A DNA stretch of 64,000 nt from assembly GCA_963702845.1 (NCBI GenBank), contig OY969763.1, positions 3,968,001 to 4,032,000 of the forward strand, in the 5' to 3' direction. The position numbers and the translations under genes were made by a program. This DNA is from an uncultured Verrucomicrobiae bacterium. Lineage in GTDB: Bacteria; Verrucomicrobiota; Verrucomicrobiia; Limisphaerales; Palsa-1400. Below are positions 23,185-44,746 of the stretch, piece after piece. The notes beneath the pieces were generated by a model. The model saw nothing but the letters and a program-made list of their open reading frames with translations, did not search any database and had not been told where the DNA came from. Every line of letters begins with the position of its first letter. The first letter of the stretch is position 1.

Positions 23185-23949
23185 ATGAAAAGTTCTGAAA
23201 TTTGGCGATGGATTGTCGTGATTGCCGGTTTGTGGACGACTACGGGGGCCTTTGCTCAAGGTGGCCTGACAAACCCGCCGCCTTTGATGGAAGTTTCGCC
23301 GGGCGTCTATCAAATCGGGCTCGTGCAACTGGACAAATCCAATAAAAGTGTTCAATTCCCTGCTGTTTTAAACATGGATCACGGGTTGATCGAGTACCTG
23401 CTCGTCACGACCCGTGGGAAAACCCATGAAAGCCTGCTGAAGACTGAGGCAGAGCCATACCATATTCATGTCGCGATGCTGTTGCTGGGCGCGAAGGGCG
23501 CGGCGCAAACGAAGGAACTGTTGAACGTACCGACGGGCGAGTATCACGTTAACACGCCCGGAGCGGCGACGAATCGGTTGGCGGCTTTGTTGAAGGGGGA
23601 TCCGATTCGGATCGAGTTGGTTTGGACGAATGCAAATGGCGCGCGCGGAGCGACGCACCCTACCGTTAGCACGAACGCGGCCGAGGATTGGATTACGGAT
23701 TTGCAAACGGGAAAATCCGCGGCGCGCGGAACGTGGGATTACAATGGGTCGCGAGTTGTCGATGGCATATATATGGCGCAACAGCAGGGCTCAATTGTGG
23801 CCGTTATCGACGATGTGGATGCGATGGTGAATAATCCGCGCAAGGGACATGAGAACGATCAGGTTTGGGAGGTTCGCACCAATACGGTGCCGAAATTGAA
23901 CGGGAAGGTGTTGGTCAGGTTCAAATTAGGCAGTAAGGTACGCAACTGA
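23185..23949 (+). CDS. Secreted YdjY-domain-like protein
   Basis: Signal peptide; IEYLLV..GKTHESLL..HVAMLLLG; YNGS motif. Confidence 0.7.
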   Translation: MKSSEIWRWIVVIAGLWTTTGAFAQGGLTNPPPLMEVSPGVYQIGLVQLDKSNKSVQFPAVLNMDHGLIEYLLVTTRGKTHESLLKTEAEPYHIHVAMLLLGAKGAAQTKELLNVPTGEYHVNTPGAATNRLAALLKGDPIRIELVWTNANGARGATHPTVSTNAAEDWITDLQTGKSAARGTWDYNGSRVVDGIYMAQQQGSIVAVIDDVDAMVNNPRKGHENDQVWEVRTNTVPKLNGKVLVRFKLGSKVRN

Positions 23950-28214: not shown

Positions 28215-30238
28215 ATGACCAGGAGAACCTTCGGTTTTGTTATAAGCCTGTTTCTGCTCGCTGCGGCCCCGTGGCTGCACGGTCAGACTCAGCTGATCGT
28301 CAATGGCGGTTTTGAAAATGGGCCGGACAATCCGAACCCATGGGTGTTGGAGGACTCGATCGTTTCGACCCCGTCCGACGCCACCTACGCGCGGAGCGGG
28401 ACATATTTTCTGTGGCTCGGTGGCCTGGCGCCATGGTTCGATGACGCTTATCAATTCGTGACGCTACCCACCGGACTGTCCTCAGCGACGCTCTCGTTTT
28501 ATTACAACGTGAATACTTTCGAGGGCACGACCACAGCGAAGGACTTCTTTTCAGCAAGCATCCGCAACACAAGCGGAAGCACACTGGCGACGATCACAAA
28601 CTTGTCCAATGTGAACGCGGACTTCGGTGTTGGCAGCGCCTTTTACCATCAGCAAACATTCAACCTCCTGCCCTACGCCGGACAAACGGTTGCCATATAT
28701 TTTGAGAGCCAAAACGACAATTCGGCTGAAACGAGTTTTTTCATCGATGACGTCAGCGTCGCGGTGACGTTCGCAAGTGGACCAGCGGATTTAACGCCGC
28801 AAAATGTTTCTGTCTCGCCGACGACCGCCCTCGCCGGTGGAACCGTGACGGTGAACTACACCGTCGCCAATGCGGGTGGGGTCGCGGCGCCAGCAAGTCA
28901 CACGAAGGTTGTCATCAAAGACCCGGCCAACAACGTTTTCACCCAACAAATTTTTCCGACCGCTGCCGTCGGGATTGGAGGCACGACCAATGAAAGTCAT
29001 ACGATGGGTTTGGTCGGAGCCATTGCCGGATCTACAACGTCTACGTGACCGTCGATGCCAACAGCGAAGTGACGCAGACCAATACCAGCAACGATACCAG
29101 CATAGCGGTGCCGCTCACAGTGGTCGCGCCGGCGGGATTGATCATCAACCCGATCTACGATTCAACCATCACGAGCGATCCGAATTCCGCCACGATTCAA
29201 AACACGATCAATACGGCGGTTCAGCAGTATGAAGGATTATTTTCCGATCCCATCACTGTGAACATTTTGTTTTCGAAAACAAATACGGGGCTCGGGCAAA
29301 GCTTTACGTTTCTCAGCGGCGTGAGCTATTCGACTTTTCTGACCGCGCTGACTTCGGATTCAAAGACTACGAATGACGCCGTTGCGCTGGCCAACCTGCC
29401 GGTTAGCGCGAACAACCCGGTCAATGGCAACGCTTCGATGTTCTTGACCCTCGCGAATCTGCGAGCGTTGGGATTGAGTGGCACATCATCCACGAATTAC
29501 GACAGCCATATCTTTCTGAATCTTTCAATTATTAATCTGAGCCGATCGAGCATTGACCCGTCGAAATATGACCTGATGGCGGTGGCACAACATGAAATTG
29601 ATGAAGCGCTCGGGTTGGGCTCGTCGCTCAACGGACTCGCTAACGGCTCTCCTGCTCCCACAGGGCCGGTGCACGTTATGGACTTGTTTCGATATGACCA
29701 GAACGGCGCGCGCAGTTTCAACACGTCGAGCACTGCCCAAGCATACTTTTCCATGGATGGCGTGACAGACCTGGCGCGTTTCAATCAAACGCAGAACGGG
29801 GATTTTCAAGATTGGTACAGCCCGGGTGGCCAAACGCCACGAGTCCAGGATGCGTTTGGAACGCCCGGAGCTACGCCGAACCTGGGCGTCGAACTGATCG
29901 CGCTGGATGCAATTGGTTACAACCTAGTGAGCGCAGTTCCAGTTCCGAGAATCATCAACGCTTCGAAAAGCGGCAACACGATCGCGCTGACCTGGACGTC
30001 ACAGGCGAATTTGAATTATCAACTGCAATATAAAACCAACGTGGCGCAGGTCGGATGGTCAACCTTGGGGAGCGCGATCAAGGCCACAAGTTCCACCACG
30101 AGTGCTTCGGATACGATTTCCGCAACGCAACGTTATTACCGTGTCGCTGTGTTGACAGCGTCGTCTTCGATTGTGTCCAGGCTCGCATCCGAACCGCCGG
30201 TCATCAGTGTGGCGACGAATTATTATCGGCCTTTTTAG
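28215..30238 (+). CDS. Secreted protein: jelly-roll domain + CARDB-like Ig + zinc-metalloprotease-like domain (frameshift near 29030)
   Basis: Signal peptide, NGGFE, TVANAG, ANLRALG, HEIDEALG, DLFRY. Confidence 0.75.
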
Positions 30239-30314
30239 ACCACCGCACGCCGCGCAAGCTCTTCCAGCGTAAAACATTCAGCAGGCATGCGAAGTGCTTT
30301 AGCAATTGCCAGAA

Positions 30315-32367
30315 ATGATTGGCAAGAGAGTGTTCGCTTTGGTCCTCGGGATTTGCGGGATGTTGGTTTCCGGAAACATCGCGATCGCCCAAACCCAATT
30401 AGTCGGTAACAGCGGTTTTGAAACGGGAATCGCCACTCCGTGGGTACTGGGCGGATCGGTCGTTGCGAACAACGGTTACGCTCACAACGGCACTTATTTG
30501 CTTTGGCTCGGCGGCATGTCTCGCTGGAACGACTCCGCATATCAGACAGTGACTATCCCGATGGCGATTTCGTCGGCCACTTTGTCGTTCTATTACAATA
30601 TTAGCAGCGCCGAAACGAACACGTCGGCTCTCGATACTTTCACCGCCACGATTCAGGACACGAACGGCGCTGTGCTCGCGACCATCGGAAACTGGTCAAA
30701 CCTCAATCGCGATCCAGCTCCGGGCAATCCGAATTATCACCAGCAAATCTTTAACCTCACCGCCTACGCGGGCAAAACGGTTCGGATCGCTTTCGCCAGT
30801 CAAAACAACGCCACGTTGGTCACCAGCTTTTTTGTCGACGATGTCACGGTGCAAACGACAGCCGCAACTGGCCCAGCCGATTTGATGCCACAGAAAATAT
30901 TCCTCATGCCAACTCCAGCCCTGGCCGGCGGTCAACTTACCGTGATGTATACAGTCGCGAACATTGGGGGCACGGCTGCACCAGCGAGCCATACGAAGAT
31001 TCAAGTCATCGATTCAGCCAACAACGTTTTGAACCAGCAGATTTTCTCGACTGCTCCCGTGGCTACAGCCGCTTCGACCAACGAAATGCATAACATGAGT
31101 TTGGTTGGTGCAACCGCGGGCAGTTACACCGTCGTCGTCACAGCGGATTGCAATGGTGAGGCGGGTCAAACGAACAGGAGCAACGACGTAAGCACGCCTG
31201 CGCCTCTGACGGTGCAACCAGGTGCCGGTCTGGTCATTCATCCCATTTACGATGCGACGATTACCAACGACCCGAATTCTGCGGTGATTCAGAACGCCAT
31301 TAATGCCGCCATCGCAAGTTACGAGTGGCAGTTTTCCGATCCGATCACCGTGAACATTCAGTTTTCCAAAATGACGAATGGACTCGGGCAAAGTTCAACT
31401 TATGGGGGCACGATTGCGTATTCAGATTTTGTGACAGCCCTTGCGGGTGATTCAATGACGACCAATGACGCGATTGCTCTGAATTATTTGTCGGCAGGCA
31501 CGGGTAATCCGGTCAACGGCAATCCATCCATCACGTTGACCACCGCGAATCTGCGTGCGCTCGGCATCAATGTGAGTCCCCCAAATAATCAGCTGGACAG
31601 CTACATCGCGTTGAATTTTTCGATCATGAACCTGACGCGCGCGAACGTAGATCCAACCAAATATGATCTATCGTCGGTGGTGCAGCATGAGATCGATGAG
31701 GCGCTCGGCCTTACATCGTCGTTGAACAACTTGAATAATGGTGCGCCAACTCCGACCGGTGCCATCCGCGTGATGGATTTGTTCCGCTATGATCAATACG
31801 GAGCGCGCAGTTTTAACACGGCATCGAATTCCCAATCATACCTATCGATTGATGGCGGCACGACGGACCTCGTTCGCTTCAATCAAACGCAAGTCGGCGA
31901 TTTCCAGGATTCGGTACAGCGGCACCGGTCACACGCCACGCGTGCAGGATGCATGGGGCATGCCGGGCGCAACGCCAAATCTCGGCGTGGAACTGATCGC
32001 TTTGGACGTGAGCGGATACAATCTCGTTTGCGCGATTCCAAAGCCGGAAATCGTCAGCATGGTCCCGAGCGGTAACAACATGAACGTGACTTGGGCCTCC
32101 GAACCGAATCTCAGCTATCAATTGCAATCCAAAGCGACCCTGCTCGGCGGATGGATTAACCTGGGAAGCCCGGTCACCTCGACCAGCACGACCACGACCG
32201 CAGCCGCAGCCATGACAACAGCGCAATCATTCTTTCGAGTGGTTTTGATGAATGGTTCACAAACGTCCTCAATGAAGCCCTCGACGGTGTCGCGCGCAAC
32301 AGCATCGATGAACCGCCAACGTTCAGCGATGCACGAGTTGCCGCCGCAAAGTCACGCGCAGCCCTGA
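30315..32367 (+). CDS. Tandem paralog of the preceding metalloprotease-like protein (frameshift near 31910)
   Basis: Same domain order and motifs (NSGFE, GPADL, HEIDEALG, PRVQDA, PNLGVELIALD). Confidence 0.75.
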
Positions 32368-32412: not shown

Positions 32413-33261
32413 GTGAATCCATACACAAAGCTGGTTTCGAATTTCTCAAACGCAGTCAAAGAAGGCCGCTCGCTTCCGCTCGGCGGAATTCCAAAAGCCG
32501 CCCGACCAACCATAAAACCTGACGCACCGAAAGCGTTGTTTTTCGCGCCGCATCCGGATGATGAAACAATTAGCGGTGGATTAGCTCTGCGTTTGTTGCG
32601 CGAAGGGCCTTGGAACGTCCTCGACGTCGCCGTGACGCAGGGGAGCAACAAGGAACGACAGGCCGGACGATTACAGGAGTTGAAGGCCGCATGCGATTAC
32701 CTGGGCTTAGGCTTAATCCAGACAGCGCCGAACGGTCTTGAGAAAGTAACGCCTGCCACGCGCGAGAAAGATTCGACGCATTGGGCGAGCATGGTGCAAG
32801 TGACGCGCAAAATCCTGGTCGAACAAAAGCCGCGCGTGATCATGTTCCCGCATGTATTGGATTGGAACGGAACACACATCGGCGTGCATCACCTCGTGAT
32901 GGACGCGTTGAAAGCGGAGCTATCGATCGATTGCTTTCTGGTCGAGACAGAATTTTGGGGACAAATGGCGGCTCCTAATTTGATGGTCGAATATTCCGAG
33001 CAAGACGTCGCTGATCTGATTGCCGCGACTTCCTTCCATGTCGGCGAGGTCAACCGCAATCCCTATCACCTGCTGCTTCCAGCCTGGATGCAGGACAACG
33101 TGCGGCGCGGAACGGAGTTGGTCGGTGGCCAGGGTGGCGCTGCCCCACAGTTCGTGTTCGCACAGCTCTTTCGAATCGGACGCTGGCGCAATGGCGCGGC
33201 GGAATGGTTCAAGGCGCAGTTTTTGCCAGCATCGCAAAACGCGGCAAGTTTGTTTCAATGA
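32413..33261 (+). CDS. PIG-L family deacetylase
   Basis: APHPDDE motif. Confidence 0.85.
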   Translation: MNPYTKLVSNFSNAVKEGRSLPLGGIPKAARPTIKPDAPKALFFAPHPDDETISGGLALRLLREGPWNVLDVAVTQGSNKERQAGRLQELKAACDYLGLGLIQTAPNGLEKVTPATREKDSTHWASMVQVTRKILVEQKPRVIMFPHVLDWNGTHIGVHHLVMDALKAELSIDCFLVETEFWGQMAAPNLMVEYSEQDVADLIAATSFHVGEVNRNPYHLLLPAWMQDNVRRGTELVGGQGGAAPQFVFAQLFRIGRWRNGAAEWFKAQFLPASQNAASLFQ

Positions 33262-33728
33262 GCGAACTGGCCATCGTCGCGATCGGCTCGAACCTCGGGC
33301 ACACCCGCGAACTGGTGTTGCGGGCCATGGATCGGCTGCAGGAATTTTCGGACGAACCGATGTTGCGATCGTCCCTTTACGAAACCGCTCCTGTCGATTG
33401 TCCTCCGGGGTCGCCGAATTTCCTGAATGCTGTTGTCGTATTTGAACCGCGTCCCGACGAAACGCCGGACTCCCTTTTGCAAAAACTGCAAGCGCTCGAG
33501 AAAGAATTCGGTCGTCAGCCCAAGAAAATCCTCAACGAATCGCGCCCATTGGACTTGGATATAATCGCTTTTGGCCAACGCAACTTGAGTAGTCCGCAGC
33601 TTACCCTGCCCCACCCTCGCGCGCATTTGCGGCGGTTCGTTCTGGAACCGTTAAGTGAAATTGCGCCGGAATTAGTGTTGCCCGGGCAAACGAAAACAGT
33701 TGCCGTCCTGCTGCAGGAATTGCGTTGA
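33258..33728 (+). CDS. folK: 2-amino-4-hydroxy-6-hydroxymethyldihydropteridine diphosphokinase
   Basis: IGSNLG, SSLYET, FLNAV, RPLDLDI, LPHPR, FVLEPL. Confidence 0.95.
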   Translation: MSELAIVAIGSNLGHTRELVLRAMDRLQEFSDEPMLRSSLYETAPVDCPPGSPNFLNAVVVFEPRPDETPDSLLQKLQALEKEFGRQPKKILNESRPLDLDIIAFGQRNLSSPQLTLPHPRAHLRRFVLEPLSEIAPELVLPGQTKTVAVLLQELR

Positions 33729-33785
33729 TATAGCGCGCCAGCGTCTTGGAGTGCGGCTCCAGTCCGTGCAAGCCGACCGCATGAT

Positions 33786-33994
33786 TGTCTCCGTGTCTCA
33801 TGTCTCAGGCGCCGCAGGGGTGAGACAATTCAATTTTGTCTCAGGCCCTTGGCCCCTGAGACATGAGACAACTTACTAAAGCAGGTTGATAACACGTTCT
33901 GTAAGTCGTTGATAAGAACATGGCGATTCACGACTTGTCTCCTGTCTCCGTGTCTCCGAGGGCAAGCGCCCGGAGACAAATTCTGTTTTGTCTC
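33786..33994. repeat. GAGACA/TGTCTC palindromic element, copy R1 (right end incomplete)
   Basis: TGTCTC-N15/16-GAGACA units around a core containing TAAGTCGTTGATA; colinear with R2 and R3. Confidence 0.9.
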
Positions 33995-34022
33995 GGGCTC
34001 CGCTCGCGGAGGCGCTTCAGAG

Positions 34023-34805
34023 TTAGGGTGGCGACATGTGCGCAATGACCCAGGCAAGATCTCGCGCGGGCGCAGGTGGCGCAGGTGGGGCAAACGGCAA
34101 GCCTTGCCGGTAAATCTGGGTAATGGGCTTTGCCGTGCTTCCATCCATCCATTTATGGATATCTGAATGCCCGTCGGCAAACGTGATACAACAAGATTGA
34201 TTGTGAAAAGAAGCGGGCAAATCCAGCCAGTCATTGGTATCGGTTCCCGAGCGCACTGGAACGAACCACCCATCATTGATGCTGTCGGGATGCTCTTCCA
34301 GCATCGTGAACGTCGTCGAGGGCCTGCTGATCTCGGTGTGGCGAAAAAAACTGTGGTAGGCCGTGCTCCCGGTAAAGGGAATGGAACCGACAAAGCCATT
34401 CATCGAATAAGTCCTCAGGCGCAGGGCCTGTCCCGGAGCCGCACTAAAATCTGCCGGGCAGCGATAAATCCTCACGTTTTGGGCCGTGTAGGGAAGAAGA
34501 GAACCCTGGACCAACAACGCCACGTTGGTGTTATCGCTATTGGCCCCGGACCAGTCCTGAAGTCCCCTGATCCAGCTTCCCGGCGGTGAGTTAGGCGGAT
34601 TGAGCGGCAAAATGTTCTGGGCGTCCCCAACATACAGGGTCCACGCCACTGCCAGTTGTTTTGTATTGCTAAGACAAGCTATCGTGTAAGCCTTTTGTTT
34701 TGCCCGGTTGAGCACGGGCAGCAATAACGCCGCTAGACTGGCAATTATTGCTATGACCACCAGCAGTTCGATAAGAGTAAACCCGTCTCGATTTCTCCTA
34801 TCCAT
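34023..34805 (-). CDS. Prepilin-type N-terminal / H-X9-DG domain protein (cargo 1)
   Basis: [36 protein letters not shown]. Confidence 0.88.
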
Positions 34806-34986
34806 TATCAAAGGCTTAATTGTTTTCCTAACCGTTCTAACATTTAATATGCGACAACAATTCGCATATTTGTAACAGGCGAACAAGCACTCAATCGCAG
34901 TCAATTCTACAGCAAAGAAATGTTGCGTGTTTCATCAGGCCAAAGCGCCGGTCGGCGGCCCACTCCAAGACGATCCGCGCGGTTCT

Positions 34987-35266
34987 TGTCTCAGTGTCTC
35001 ATGTCTCAGGCACCGCAGGGGTGAGACAAATTAAGTTTTGTCTCAGGTCCTTGGCCCCTGAGACATGAGACATGAGACATGAGACATGAGACATGAGACA
35101 CGAGACAACTTACTAATGAAGGTTAATAACACTTTCTGTAAGTCGTTGATTAGAACATGGCGATTTACCGACTTGTCTCCGTGTCTCCTGTCTCCGAGGG
35201 CAAGGGCCGGAGACAAATCTGGTTTTGTCTCCGCCTCCGGTGGTCGGGGACAGGAGACAAGAGACA
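34987..35266. repeat. GAGACA/TGTCTC palindromic element, copy R2 (complete, with 7x heptad expansion)
   Basis: Four TGTCTC-N15-G(A/G)GACA units; (NGAGACA)7 at 35059-35107; core TAAGTCGTTGATT. Confidence 0.92.
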
Positions 35267-35385
35267 AGTTCGCCCTTTTTGCGGCGAGGCTCCTGCCGAC
35301 TTACAAAGGCTCCGCGTAAAATCGCAAGTTATCAGGCGTGGCAACGTCCATCACGTCGAGGTCTGCGAAGTCCCGAAGAATATCG

Positions 35386-36240
35386 TCAATCCCATACTAA
35401 AAACCATCCGGGCTGGTCGTTGGAATACTCGCGTGGGATATGTGCACCAGGTCGCTCCTCACGATAGAACTCCGCTCGAAGCTCGCGTGCCCAGGCCGCG
35501 ATGACTGTCTCATCGACAGGCCCTGCCACGAAGACACAATCACTGTAAGGCTCCAACTCATTCTCTGCATCCACATACTCTCCAACCGGAATCACGCAGC
35601 GATTGACTCCTGGCTCTGTGCTCAATCTGGTCAGTGTCTCCTTGAAGTCAGCCTTACTGGGATGCGGCTCAAGATTCGGGGCGAGGCAATAATTACCCGC
35701 ACACTTGGAAAAGAACTCATCGATCGAAAGGTATGCGACGTGATGGGGTCTCGTGCTTTTGGAGTGGGGCATCCGTAGCCCGCCTGTCCGACTCGTCGTC
35801 GTTGTTGGAATGGGGGCATCATCTCCGTAAAAAGGCGACGCCGGGAATTGCCAGCCTACCATCGCCTGCAATGTCTGATGCAGGAGCTTCAACTTTTCTC
35901 TGAATCCTGGTGGGGAACCATGCACCTGGCCCCTCGACGCCATGCTCCGGGATCCGACCTCCAACTCCGTAATCCACTGAAGGCCGTCACACAGGTGCAA
36001 ATCGCCGAGCGTCGGAGGCCACGACCAAACATCAATCTCGTCGCAAACTTGCCAAAACTTCTCCCATTGTTCAGCCGTGGGAGTCATCGACTCGTCCCAG
36101 TCTCGTGAGTTATTAGAAAAACCGGGTAGCATGAAAGTGAGGTGGCCGCTCTGCCAACAAAAGCTATTAGGACCATCAGGTGGCCACCCTTGAAGACCAT
36201 GCTTTAGTCTGACTGGCTCCAACAATTTTGACGAATTCAT
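35386..36240 (-). CDS. Hypothetical protein, possibly two fused ORFs (cargo 2)
   Basis: Long ORF with a low-complexity linker (PIPTTTTSRTGG) before an internal Met. Confidence 0.6.
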   Translation of the reverse strand: MNSSKLLEPVRLKHGLQGWPPDGPNSFCWQSGHLTFMLPGFSNNSRDWDESMTPTAEQWEKFWQVCDEIDVWSWPPTLGDLHLCDGLQWITELEVGSRSMASRGQVHGSPPGFREKLKLLHQTLQAMVGWQFPASPFYGDDAPIPTTTTSRTGGLRMPHSKSTRPHHVAYLSIDEFFSKCAGNYCLAPNLEPHPSKADFKETLTRLSTEPGVNRCVIPVGEYVDAENELEPYSDCVFVAGPVDETVIAAWARELRAEFYREERPGAHIPREYSNDQPGWFLVWD

Positions 36241-36447
36241 ATTAGTGCGCGATGCCACCTAACTAAATTATTATGTATTACTTCTTTCCGCCTAAGTTCA
36301 TAAGTGAACGTTAAAGGAGGAGGAAAACTTTCCCTGTTTTTGTTCGTGTGTGTTTGTCGATGGAGCGTAGTTGCGGCACCCAGCGCGGTGCAATCGTAAA
36401 CTTCTGCGCTGCCTGGATTGCGGGAGTTTAGCTGAAGGCGCTCGATT

Positions 36448-36656
36448 TGTCTCCGTGTCTCCTGTCTCAGGCACCGTAGGGGTGAGACAAGAGACAAACT
36501 TTATAAAGCAGGTTGATAACACTTTCTGTAAGTCGTTGATCAGAACATGGCGTTGGCGATTCACGACTTGTCTCCGTGTCTCCGAGGGCAACAGCCGGAG
36601 ACAAATCTGGTTTTGTCTCCGCCTCCAGTGGTCCGGAGACAGGAGACAAGGAGACA
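36448..36656. repeat. GAGACA/TGTCTC palindromic element, copy R3 (unit 2 missing)
   Basis: Terminal inverted repeats match at 23 of 25 positions; same core. Confidence 0.92.
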
Positions 36657-36689
36657 ACTCAACAGGCCAGCTAGTCCTCGTCGCTCCGT

Positions 36690-37181
36690 TTACTTCCTCG
36701 TCGCCAGCCGTTTCGACCGCTGGTTACGCTGGACCATGGCTGGATAGAAATTCCAGACCACGTTAACGAGACCCACTCCTATCGCCAGCAATGGGTCCGC
36801 AGATATTCCTAGGTACAAGGCCACCGGCAGGCTGATGACAAAGGCCGCGGTGTGAATGAATTCCGCTCTCCTGGTGTTGTTATCGTATTGCGCTAAACCG
36901 CTCCGTGTCCCGTCGAAGATCAATCTGTCGTAGAGCAATCTCTTGCTGATCCGTGGGTTCCAGACCGTCCGCCGGAGGAGCGTCCTGAACAGCTCGATCC
37001 TCAAAATCTTGCAGGCGGATGCGAATGATTTCGAACGCACGGCTTCGTAGTAGGAGTCGGGAAGCAGCCGATACATGGGCCAGGCGAAGCCGATGACAAA
37101 GATACTCAGTATGTAAAAATTCAGGAGAATTGACTCAAGCAGGATTGCACCCAATGAAGCCGGCTGAGAGTGTTCGACCAT
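36690..37181 (-). CDS. Membrane protein resembling the CrtO-like acyltransferase family (cargo 3; true start may be upstream)
   Basis: TRRAEFIH and NFYPAMVQRNQR resemble the family's RAE..H and YP..QRYNR motifs. Confidence 0.55.
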   Translation of the reverse strand: MVEHSQPASLGAILLESILLNFYILSIFVIGFAWPMYRLLPDSYYEAVRSKSFASACKILRIELFRTLLRRTVWNPRISKRLLYDRLIFDGTRSGLAQYDNNTRRAEFIHTAAFVISLPVALYLGISADPLLAIGVGLVNVVWNFYPAMVQRNQRSKRLATRK

Positions 37182-37405
37182 CCAGGGACACCAGCAGCGA
37201 GGCCCGCCACAGCATGAAGGCCGACAACGCGCTCGATAGAATTTGCAGCGAGAGGATTCTAAACCTTGTCACTGTCAACTGTGCCTCCAAATGGCGCAAG
37301 GATCTGGCAATCCGGTCGCCTGACGTTTCAGCTCAGCCAGTGACAAAAGAATACCGCAGCCGAAGCGAATGCCAAGCTTCGTGGCGAATTACCAGCGGCA
37401 CACCT

Positions 37406-37462
37406 TGTCTCCGTGTCTCATGTCTCCGGCCACTGCACCCTGAGACATGAGACACGGAGACA
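37406..37462. repeat. Minimal GAGACA element R4: perfect 21-bp inverted repeat with a 15-nt spacer
   Basis: TGTCTCCGTGTCTCATGTCTC-CGGCCACTGCACCCT-GAGACATGAGACACGGAGACA. Confidence 0.92.
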
Positions 37463-37477
37463 TCCGCTGAAGACCGG

Positions 37478-38740
37478 TCAAAGTGGCTTCGCGTAAATCC
37501 GCTCCATCTTCCCCAACGGATCCACAATCGTTATTCCCTCTTTATCAAACCGCGCCGTTACAGGAGCGCCTTTGCCCTCTTGCATATATTTGAAGTTCAA
37601 ATCCCGCACTATCGCCGCAGCGTGAACAATCGCCACGACAATCCGTGCATCTTCCGCCGTCGGATAAATCTCCGCAAGTTGCTCGCGTTTTTCGTTCGAA
37701 AATTTGCTGCGGCAGACTGCGGCCAGGCCGACGGTGAGACTGTCGACGCCGTAGCCGATGTAAGCTTTGCTGCCGTCGGGCCGGACAACATCGCGCGTGA
37801 AATGATTGTTCGATGTGCGACTGCCACCGCCTTTATTCCACCAGCGAAAACCGCGATATTGTTGATCGCTTTCCACCTTGCCATCGGCACCCAAAATTTC
37901 GTGGCCTTGATTCACCGGCCCTTCGAAGTCCGGAGGCGTGATCCAGTTGTTGTGGAAATTGATGCTCATCCCGTTCTCGAAATCGACCCGCACCTGAACG
38001 GCATCGTAGGCATTGATCTTGTCGCGAACGAGCCGTTGTTTCTGCCCAACAGCCGTCAGCGAAACCGGTTTGCTATTGTAATAATGCCAAATCAAATCGA
38101 CCCAGTGCGGCCCAACATAGCTGAACGGATCGCTCTGCTCCGCCCACTTGAACGTGCTGGTAGAAACTTCGAGCGGCTCTTCCAGATACGCCGTGCCGTA
38201 GAGCGGTGCGCCGATGCGATTCTTGATATCATCGCGAATACGCAGGTGGTCCGGATCGTAACGCTTGTGCATATCCACCGCGACGATCAGGTTTTTCTTT
38301 TTCGCGAGCTCCACAATTTCATCCGCTTCGTGGATGTTCAGGCACATCGGTTTTTCGGTGATGACATGCGTGCCGTTGTTGAGCGCGGCGAGGATGACTT
38401 CGGTGTGCAGATTATCGGGCGTGGCAACGGCCATCACATCGAGGTCTGGAACGTCGCGCAGAATATCGAGCCACGGTGTTTTGCCAAAATAGGTTTTGGG
38501 CGCTTTCCCGGTTAGCTCTTTATAAGTCTGTTGCGCCCGTTGCGCAGACGCTTCAGAGCGCGTCGCGACCGCGACCAATTCAAATTCAATCGGCGCGAGA
38601 TCGCGCGTCCATTTGTCGAGCCCCACTCGCGCAAGTTGCGACGCGATGCCGAATCGCTGAAGATCGGCGTAAGCGCGCATGTGAACGTCGCCGCCGAACA
38701 TGCCGGCGCCAACAAGTGCAATCTTTACTCTGCCTTCCAT
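37478..38740 (-). CDS. Gfo/Idh/MocA family oxidoreductase
   Basis: IALVGAG, VATPDNLH, TEKPM. Confidence 0.9.
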   Translation of the reverse strand: MEGRVKIALVGAGMFGGDVHMRAYADLQRFGIASQLARVGLDKWTRDLAPIEFELVAVATRSEASAQRAQQTYKELTGKAPKTYFGKTPWLDILRDVPDLDVMAVATPDNLHTEVILAALNNGTHVITEKPMCLNIHEADEIVELAKKKNLIVAVDMHKRYDPDHLRIRDDIKNRIGAPLYGTAYLEEPLEVSTSTFKWAEQSDPFSYVGPHWVDLIWHYYNSKPVSLTAVGQKQRLVRDKINAYDAVQVRVDFENGMSINFHNNWITPPDFEGPVNQGHEILGADGKVESDQQYRGFRWWNKGGGSRTSNNHFTRDVVRPDGSKAYIGYGVDSLTVGLAAVCRSKFSNEKREQLAEIYPTAEDARIVVAIVHAAAIVRDLNFKYMQEGKGAPVTARFDKEGITIVDPLGKMERIYAKPL

Positions 38741-43915: not shown

Positions 43916-44746
43916 ATGTTGTCACCCAACCCACTCTTGCACTCCCCATCCATTCACCCTACGTTTGACAACGTGATCTCAAGGAGACCGATCATCGCGA
44001 AGGCCGCGTTCACATTAATCGAATTGCTCGTCGTCATAGCAATCATCGCCATCATTGCGGCCTTGCTGCTGCCAACCCTCGCCCGCTCCAAAAACGCCGC
44101 GCACTCCGCGAATTGTAAGAGCAATCTCAGACAACTGGGCACCAGTCTCCACATGTTTGTGTCCGATAACCGCTGCTATCCAACCAACGCTTTCCAGACC
44201 AAGCCCCTGTCCCCTCCAAACTCGGACAGATTCTGGCTGGGCAAACTGGCGCGTGAAGGACTTGGCATCCCTCGACCATCCACTAATTTCCAACGCAGCG
44301 GCGTGTGGCGTTGTCCGACAGCACGCTGGAGCGATTCGATGAAAACCGGAAACGACCTGAATAATTTCACTGATTACGGTTACAACGACGATAAGTTCGC
44401 TGGCAAAGGGCTACTCGACAGCACCAATAAATTTGGGCTCGAGGGACATTATCGTCCCGGTCCCGGTTTCGCGTCCGCTTGGCCTTTCATTCCAATCGCC
44501 GAGAACGAAATAGTCGCACCGAGCGAGATGATGGCCATGGGCGATTGCTTTGAAGCCAACGCGCTGTTCACCCGTAGGCGAATCGATGTTTTTACCGAAT
44601 TCGGAAATATCCTCGATCGGCACCAGGGCAAGGCTGAAGTAGTATTCTGCGACGGCCACGTCGAATCGCCCACCCTCCAATTCCTCCTCGAAGACACCAC
44701 TGACGCGGCACTCGCTCGCTGGAACTACGACCATCAGCCCCACTGA
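43916..44746 (+). CDS. Prepilin-type N-terminal / H-X9-DG domain protein (start uncertain)
   Basis: [37 protein letters not shown]. Confidence 0.88.

Follow-up and report, generated by a model that had tools for sequence, protein, structure and literature searches.

How did three unrelated genes come to alternate with four copies of a palindromic repeat at a single chromosomal site? This question is raised by a 64,000-nucleotide stretch of DNA, hereafter the window, from an uncultured Verrucomicrobiae bacterium (GenBank assembly GCA_963702845.1, contig OY969763.1, positions 3,968,001 to 4,032,000). The gap between its convergent folK (PF01288) and Gfo/Idh/MocA oxidoreductase (PF01408) genes is occupied by an array of repeats built on the word GAGACA, all present in the window: R1 (33786-33994, extending to 34002), R2 (34987-35266), R3 (36448-36656) and R4 (37406-37462). 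An initial annotation made from the sequence alone had described these four repeats as alternating with three minus-strand cargo genes, and both its coordinates and its gene calls hold. With moderate confidence, we propose that a helicase-origin element without an integrase gave rise to non-autonomous derivatives, and that recombination at copies of the origin stacked these into the island. This proposal is backed by the kinship of the repeats to helicase-adjacent origins, by a two-sided layout, by scars and by cargo variation.

In the 6.03-Mb genome holding the window (G000, contig C1), GAGACA and its complement TGTCTC form 12 clusters of at least four sites, confined to two islands. Since random placement of the 1399 sites produced even one such cluster in only 5 of 1000 trials, this clustering is not due to chance, and the repeats are not scattered singly through the genome, an outcome that had been left open. 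Nine element loci were found, four in the window and five in a second island 65-70 kb away (C1:4070351-4076190; L001:10352-16191), located between convergent GNAT and LTXXQ genes. Both islands begin and end with an element and lie in convergent intergenic gaps. Within the second island, elements E4 and E3 bracket a helicase gene encoding DnaB N-terminal and AAA_25 domains, with E3 beginning 2 bp past the stop codon. E3 displays opposed iteron sets around an AT-rich centre (<<< > < >>>), a layout shared by the window copies. The solved proteins closest to the helicase are DnaB and RepA. A close intact homologue was modelled with a C-terminus made of three helices and a hairpin (predicted local distance difference test score of about 75-92), which indicates that the C-terminal tail of the helicase is a winged helix; its recognition motif starts the third helix.

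We then compared 37 related helicase loci, some of them near-duplicates, leaving out L065, L068, L069, L070 and L073. In most of them an iteron array lies directly past the helicase stop codon, and the word it is built on differs according to the protein. All 7 loci with the recognition helix R-x-SAYR have GAGACA, which is the top word for none of the 20 other parsed helices (10 helices were unparsable). Furthermore, the well-supported sister proteins L036 and L066 switch helix and word together. Because of the adjacency to the helicase, this covariation, the winged-helix model and a layout resembling that of Staphylococcus aureus pathogenicity islands (SaPI) and phage-inducible chromosomal islands (PICI), we consider the repeat to be a probable docking site for the helicase and a probable replication origin. 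The table of helices and words amounts to a small, testable DNA-recognition code. The enzyme acting in trans that had been predicted thus has a counterpart, as a cognate protein does exist outside the window, but it is a replication helicase or initiator and not a recombinase, an HUH or a DDE enzyme.

Arrays stand on both sides of the helicase gene in 3 of the 37 loci (G000, G304 and G211), six of the 37 having too little upstream DNA for this count. All three are integrase-free, and their upstream array lies at -1764 to -1803 bp from the stop codon. The tblastn screen for integrases was insensitive, having missed an integrase-looking open reading frame in L038, and we trust the absence for these three genomes, which were checked with Pfam. 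Four genomes carry a GAGACA helicase beside an integrase and contain exactly one origin each, mostly asymmetric and ending in a CCC-TATA-GGG-type hairpin.

The basic element spans about 90 bp and is composed of three heptamers, 21 bp, one heptamer, a 9-10 bp and mostly AT-rich centre, one heptamer, 21 bp and three heptamers. R1, R2 and R3 each comprise two such elements, roughly mutually inverted around a spacer of 65-72 bp that is restricted to three genomic places, all in R1-R3; R4, R3a and R1b are deletion forms. As had been claimed, R1-R3 share one orientation and are direct repeats of each other (R1/R2, 78% over 256 columns; R2/R3, 84% over 182 columns). The elements and spacers are as follows.

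33786-33870: R1a, upstream-type iteron palindrome (E_up), oriented like the lone element of G002, a genome of the same genus (score 111 vs 83 reversed)
33871-33935: spacer copy 1, carrying an att-arm-like motif
33936-34002: R1b, truncated downstream-type palindrome (E_down), end of unit 1
34987-35107: R2a, E_up of unit 1, its heptamer run expanded to 7; corresponds in alignment to E4, which precedes the helicase gene
35108-35173: spacer copy 2, 89% identical to copy 1
35174-35266: R2b, E_down of unit 2; its alignment with E3, just past the helicase stop, covers 96 columns
36448-36496: R3a, internally deleted E_up of unit 2
36497-36568: spacer copy 3, 86% identical to copy 1
36569-36656: R3b, E_down of unit 3
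37406-37462: R4, deleted E_up of unit 3, in which two sets of three iterons remain; the oxidoreductase stop is 15 bp away

Read along the minus strand, the array appears to be made of three units, each consisting of an upstream element, a cargo gene and a downstream element, joined by the constant spacer and followed by a spare upstream element beside folK. Given that R3b carries the end of the helicase gene, that R2b aligns with E3 and that R2a aligns with E4, the cargo seems to have replaced the helicase in each window unit. The following scars lie between cargo genes and repeats.

36657-36690, minus strand: last codons of the helicase gene, in register with R3b; first 14 bases exact, 25/34 identical without gaps
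35298-35385, minus strand: scar of a second oxidoreductase allele, an internal piece fused to the 3' end of the gene

The match level of the helicase scar is reached at only two unrelated places on the plus strand of the genome, and the stop codon of cargo 3, a CrtO-like gene, is joined to this scrap. The oxidoreductase scar is 86% identical over 57 bp to 38412-38468, and its end piece matches the end of the G002 gene at 18/21 positions. This scar of a second allele lies between cargo 2 and R2 and shows that the stack includes a version of this locus that came from a different strain or species. These scars, the double structure of R1-R3, the attI and attC remnants described below and the five outside copies beside the helicase gene all go beyond the initial annotation.

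Comparison with relatives supports the view that the repeats mark variable cargo. In G002, a single element oriented like R1a and R4 and no cargo separate folK from the oxidoreductase gene, while in G001, also of the same genus, the interval spans 3.7 kb and contains other cargo and one same-layout element with the word TGAGAA. The interval therefore varies in all three genomes of the genus. In G001 (L063:600-4350) it holds TPR, SMI1/KNR4 and small genes, a repeat resembling repetitive extragenic palindromic (REP) sequences and the TGAGAA element; the second-island site is empty, and no helicase cognate to TGAGAA was found in this 73%-complete genome. In another family, G304 encodes an integrase-free helicase flanked by two TGAGAA elements, four elements bound an 11-kb cargo island, and an orphan element lies on another contig. 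Five relatives lack the element and the helicase after the permease gene at this locus; their next genes differ, hence no clean empty site is available. The G304 island also carries, between two origin-like elements (L093:6260-9530), two identical Y1_Tnp genes resembling REP-associated tyrosine transposases (RAYT); they form tandem units and are accompanied by palindromic repeats of their own. In G211, the sister helicase gene stands alone amid housekeeping genes, without cargo, followed by a symmetric array and preceded by half an array.

R1 used as a DNA query matched 2 of 61 relatives, G000 included, and a looser element pattern matched 5 of 401 genomes of the order, namely G000, three genomes in which it lies beside a cognate helicase and one in which it looks like chance. 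The strict pattern gave no match in viral or metagenome contigs and a single one in genome contigs (L046), which was not counted as a further case because its surrounding sequence is identical to another locus of the set. Oxidoreductase orthologues occur in 13 of 31 family genomes, with a GAGACA cluster past the stop codon in 2 of the 13. Helicase homologues were detected in 15 of the 401 order genomes (G000 included), in 10 metagenome loci and in 14 viral loci; the latter came from an alignment scan, a single-protein scan of viral sequences having returned none, and none of the 14 has a second array.

The parent that we envisage would be minimal, an integrase-free element of about 1.8 kb comprising an upstream element, a promoter, the helicase gene and a downstream element acting as origin; the iteron arrays would be recognized by a self-loading DnaB-like helicase through its winged-helix tail. 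In the window units, cargo derived in part from old integron cassettes would take the place of the helicase, the units being stacked head to tail. Helicase supplied in trans could bind and fire the element sites, units would be looped out or copied, and homologous recombination by the host, acting between copies of the element, would insert them where an element is already resident in a gap between convergent genes. The origin would thereby double as an integration site. If an origin can indeed be at once replicon, integration homology and cassette boundary, genes could accumulate without a dedicated recombinase and be overlooked by integrase-based island finders, which would also account for the spread of integron cassettes in a genome without IntI. 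The 1.8-kb helicase-origin unit is moreover a candidate minimal replicon for a phylum that has few genetic tools.

We suggest only tentatively that such elements constitute a distinct class in Verrucomicrobiota, one that would possess nothing but a self-loading helicase and a symmetric origin, without integrase, replicate as mini-circles, integrate by homology at resident origins, give rise to origin-bounded derivatives that take up integron cassettes and host DNA and build cargo arrays, and fall into specificity groups according to the iteron word (GAGACA, TGAGAA). A satellite origin usually occurs as a single copy and is linked to an integrase. The suspicion that the system was undescribed stands in part: the repeat itself is of a known kind, the SaPI/PICI-type iteron origin, whereas no description of integrase-free, origin-bounded cargo arrays was found in a literature search that left most subscription papers outside. 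Short tandem inverted heptamer repeats of bacteria also have a literature of their own, which this search did not retrieve and which may bear on novelty.

A more passive history would leave the helicase uninvolved. Integrase-bearing satellites would have decayed at accessory-gene hotspots, and the surviving origin block, perhaps retained as a terminator or as a decoy soaking up incoming helicase, would have multiplied with its neighbours by unequal recombination between strains, much as the promoter early stem-loop (PeSL) motifs of T4-type phages do. We regard this explanation as rather unlikely, even though it agrees with the oxidoreductase scar, in which two versions of the same hotspot are stacked, with the frameshift in the resident helicase, with the interval being variable throughout the genus and with the presence of other orphan origin-like arrays in the genome. 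It also agrees with the resemblance of the spacer to an integrase-proximal arm, a weak and single match (24/26 bases of the att-arm-like motif to L039; E value of 3e-4 in 347 kb). It gives no account of why two-sided elements stand at a near-equal distance in three integrase-free loci and in 0/34 others, why elements form the exact ends of both islands, or why symmetric elements lack the CCC-TATA-GGG hairpin common in integrase-linked origins. Should it be right, the array would be a tidy but unremarkable trace of how satellites decay at a hotspot. The repeats, or the same spacer, constant and bearing its arm-like motif, could instead be the target of a site-specific recombinase acting in trans, for instance one of the tyrosine recombinases among the 11 PF00589 matches of the genome, which would shuffle cassettes as first supposed; the fixed ends of the units are in keeping with this. 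We find it improbable, as the nearest tyrosine recombinase lies about 250 kb from the second island, there is no IntI, the spacer is absent from the second island and from G304, the motif is found at 15 places when one mismatch is allowed and in only one (L039) of 17 integrase-upstream regions, and no core-site or hybrid-site pattern is apparent. No cutting-and-joining enzyme was found, and an active gene-shuffling system is therefore conjectural.

Mobilization of a REP- or MITE-like (miniature inverted-repeat transposable element) hairpin by an HUH (RAYT) or other transposase, with the cargo incidental, is very improbable. The elements do form strong single-strand hairpins (five fold with z scores of -6.7 to -9.7) and sit just past stop codons, REP-like halves flank unit 1, and the G304 island includes Y1_Tnp genes. 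Those genes have their own, different repeats, however, and in G000 the element is restricted to nine loci in two clusters rather than dispersed, with the nearest of seven Y1_Tnp matches more than 330 kb away; the match between word and helicase helix already largely refutes this scenario.

Several observations weigh against the stacking of helicase-origin derivatives that we favor. Compared with four fused homologues, the resident helicase gene carries a frameshift, which may reflect decay or an assembly error, the latter being possible because other window genes also look split. Four close homologues (P0002-P0005), 72-77% identical, are unsplit. No primase was found beside the helicase, the unit encoding only the DnaB N-terminal and AAA_25 domains. 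The helicase gene was not found in the 30 other family genomes, including G001 and G002 (67-73% complete), and the protein was in no plasmid or phage record searched. A comparison of the arms of E3 and E4 gave no crossover signature, so that they were rejected as reciprocal attL/attR-like hybrids, and the weak likeness of the spacer to an integrase-proximal arm would fit a decayed integrating ancestor. Stacking may not need the helicase, given that the TGAGAA element of G001 does not bracket the cargo. Finally, array-forming cases number only two (G000 and G304), and the tree does not reject a single origin of the G000 and G304/G211 forms (approximately unbiased test, p-AU 0.129); their sequences may thus record one event.

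On the features tested, the array belongs to none of the SaPI/PICI, integron or CALIN (cluster of attC sites lacking an integrase), pdif or REP systems. SaPI/PICI origins (PMC6092414, PMC9371898) have iterons of 5-7 bases right after the helicase stop codon, in opposed sets around an AT-rich centre, and a C-terminal winged helix. The elements are alike in that the E3 origin lies 3' of rep with the same arrangement, accessory genes are carried along, and a predicted C-terminal winged helix is matched to the iteron, judging from model topology and helix-word covariation. They are unlike those origins in that no integrase, att site, repressor or primase is present here, the helicase is DnaB/RepA-like, the element lies on both sides of the gene and the origin is multiplied and bounds cargo blocks. 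Non-autonomous IncQ satellite plasmids (PMC6925257) likewise keep the origin, have lost replication genes and need the full element in trans; they are extrachromosomal and transient and lose accessory genes, whereas the window units are part of the chromosome, form a stack and have acquired cargo. The PeSL cassettes of T4-type phages (PMC2839356) similarly have a short repeat that separates variable genes and is shuffled by copy-copy recombination, with mini-circles as possible vectors, but PeSLs are promoter-terminator motifs of phage genomes, whereas the window repeats derive from a probable origin. By analogy, the array would unite the working of a PICI origin with shuffling of the PeSL type and the dependence seen in satellite plasmids.

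As in CALIN (PMC4889954), the genes are co-oriented and lack intI, and cargo 1 and 3 appear to start at GTTRRRY-type boxes of attI/attC remnants; unlike CALIN, the boundaries are not attC sites and no cargo retains a whole downstream attC. As had been reported, R1-R4 contain no GTTRRRY or RYYYAAC boxes and no dif arms (XerC and XerD arms around a 6-bp centre, searched with up to six mismatches to a dif consensus), and a pdif module was rejected because its arms are not matched in the repeats. Membership in a REP/RAYT family was rejected because there are two clusters only and no linked RAYT gene. Rfam returned no family match to the repeats, its eight weak miRNA-hairpin matches being far under the gathering score. 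With a sigma-70 consensus only, no promoter-like site was found in the repeats, and one terminator-like site lies beside R2. No target-site duplication was seen by eye in the repeat flanks, and neither island has a PF00589 match nearby or a tRNA gene at its ends.

The boundary genes, cargo genes and sequences ahead of them are listed below.

33261-33728, plus strand: folK, host gene at the left boundary (PF01288), adjoining the oxidoreductase gene in G002
33734-33757, plus strand: half of an unrelated host REP-like repeat, with 5 other genomic matches
34023-34805, minus strand: cargo 1, N-methylation pilin-like H-X9-DG protein of about 260 aa (PF07963, phrog_3433)
34835-34887, minus strand: attI-like site that precedes cargo 1 and has GTTAGAA at its end, matching the site beside intI in L129-L131
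34942-34984, plus strand: other half of the host REP-like repeat
35386-36240, minus strand: cargo 2, protein of 284 aa, function unassigned, no match in the Pfam copy used
36253-36399, minus strand: conserved leader that precedes cargo 2 and has GTTAGGT at its end; 7 hits in the genome
36690-37181, minus strand: cargo 3, CrtO-like acyltransferase of 163 aa (PF18927, E value of 3e-14), joined to the helicase scar
37318-37376, minus strand: attC-like site with an internal deletion, preceding cargo 3 and with GTCAGGC at its end
37478-38740, minus strand: Gfo/Idh/MocA oxidoreductase, host gene at the right boundary (PF01408)

All three cargo genes are on the minus strand, with stop codons 29, 120 and 34 bp from the nearest repeat for cargo 1, 2 and 3, respectively, in agreement with the distance of about 30 bp given earlier for cargo 1 and 3. 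The ATG chosen as the start of cargo 1 follows the attI-like site, and its stop codon overlaps a CCTAAC box. The attI-like site has 37 BLAST hits in G000 (34835-34887 and 36 other places), and the matching intI-adjacent site was found in three family genomes. More complete copies of the attC remnant of cargo 3 occur at C1:100420-100539 and elsewhere, and the remnant matches them at either end. Homologues of cargo 2 span at most 51% of the protein; its leader is 87% identical over 140 bp to the leader heading a second-island gene and has no real match to an intI-proximal attI. IntI gave no match above the TIGR02249 cut-off in G000 (assembly 90% complete) and exceeded it in 4 of 30 family genomes. 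From these sequence matches, the capture history appears to be partly of the integron type, cargo 1 and 3 bearing apparent integron remnants, and the integron traces predate the stacking.

The remainder of the second island comprises two cassette-like genes, a toxin-antitoxin pair of the ParE type and an IS110 insertion sequence that lies in an attC-like site; five more copies of this insertion sequence are found in the genome, unlinked to elements. One of its genes (C1:4075727-4076137) has a homologue at 4836346-4836669, behind a copy of the cargo-2 leader in a prophage-like region. This region and a related one (C1:4815000-4844000 and about 127000-150000) each contain an AAA_25 gene and a tyrosine recombinase gene, as well as genes that, from their translations, we presume to encode terminase, portal and capsid proteins. 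At C1:5223307-5226982, a satellite-like block carries a fused DnaB-N/AAA_25 gene with an array of CGGACT iterons behind it, the same principle with another word.

Orphan arrays of opposed short repeats were also seen in G000 at C1:939993, 1663519, 3792251, 1024868, 2853861, 4439248, 1825176, 2599676, 3840800 and 5303121, with the words TGCAAT, TGCGAC, AGAAAC and TGCAAC, the last in four near-identical dispersed copies. Elsewhere in the window, a second H-X9-DG pilin-like gene, from a family with many members in the genome, lies outside the island at 43916-44746, two tandem paralogous genes for secreted CARDB-domain proteins, each apparently split by a frameshift, occupy 28215-32367, and a different short GC-rich repeat is present in four copies, one of them inverted, at 23634, 46298, 47568 and 59117.

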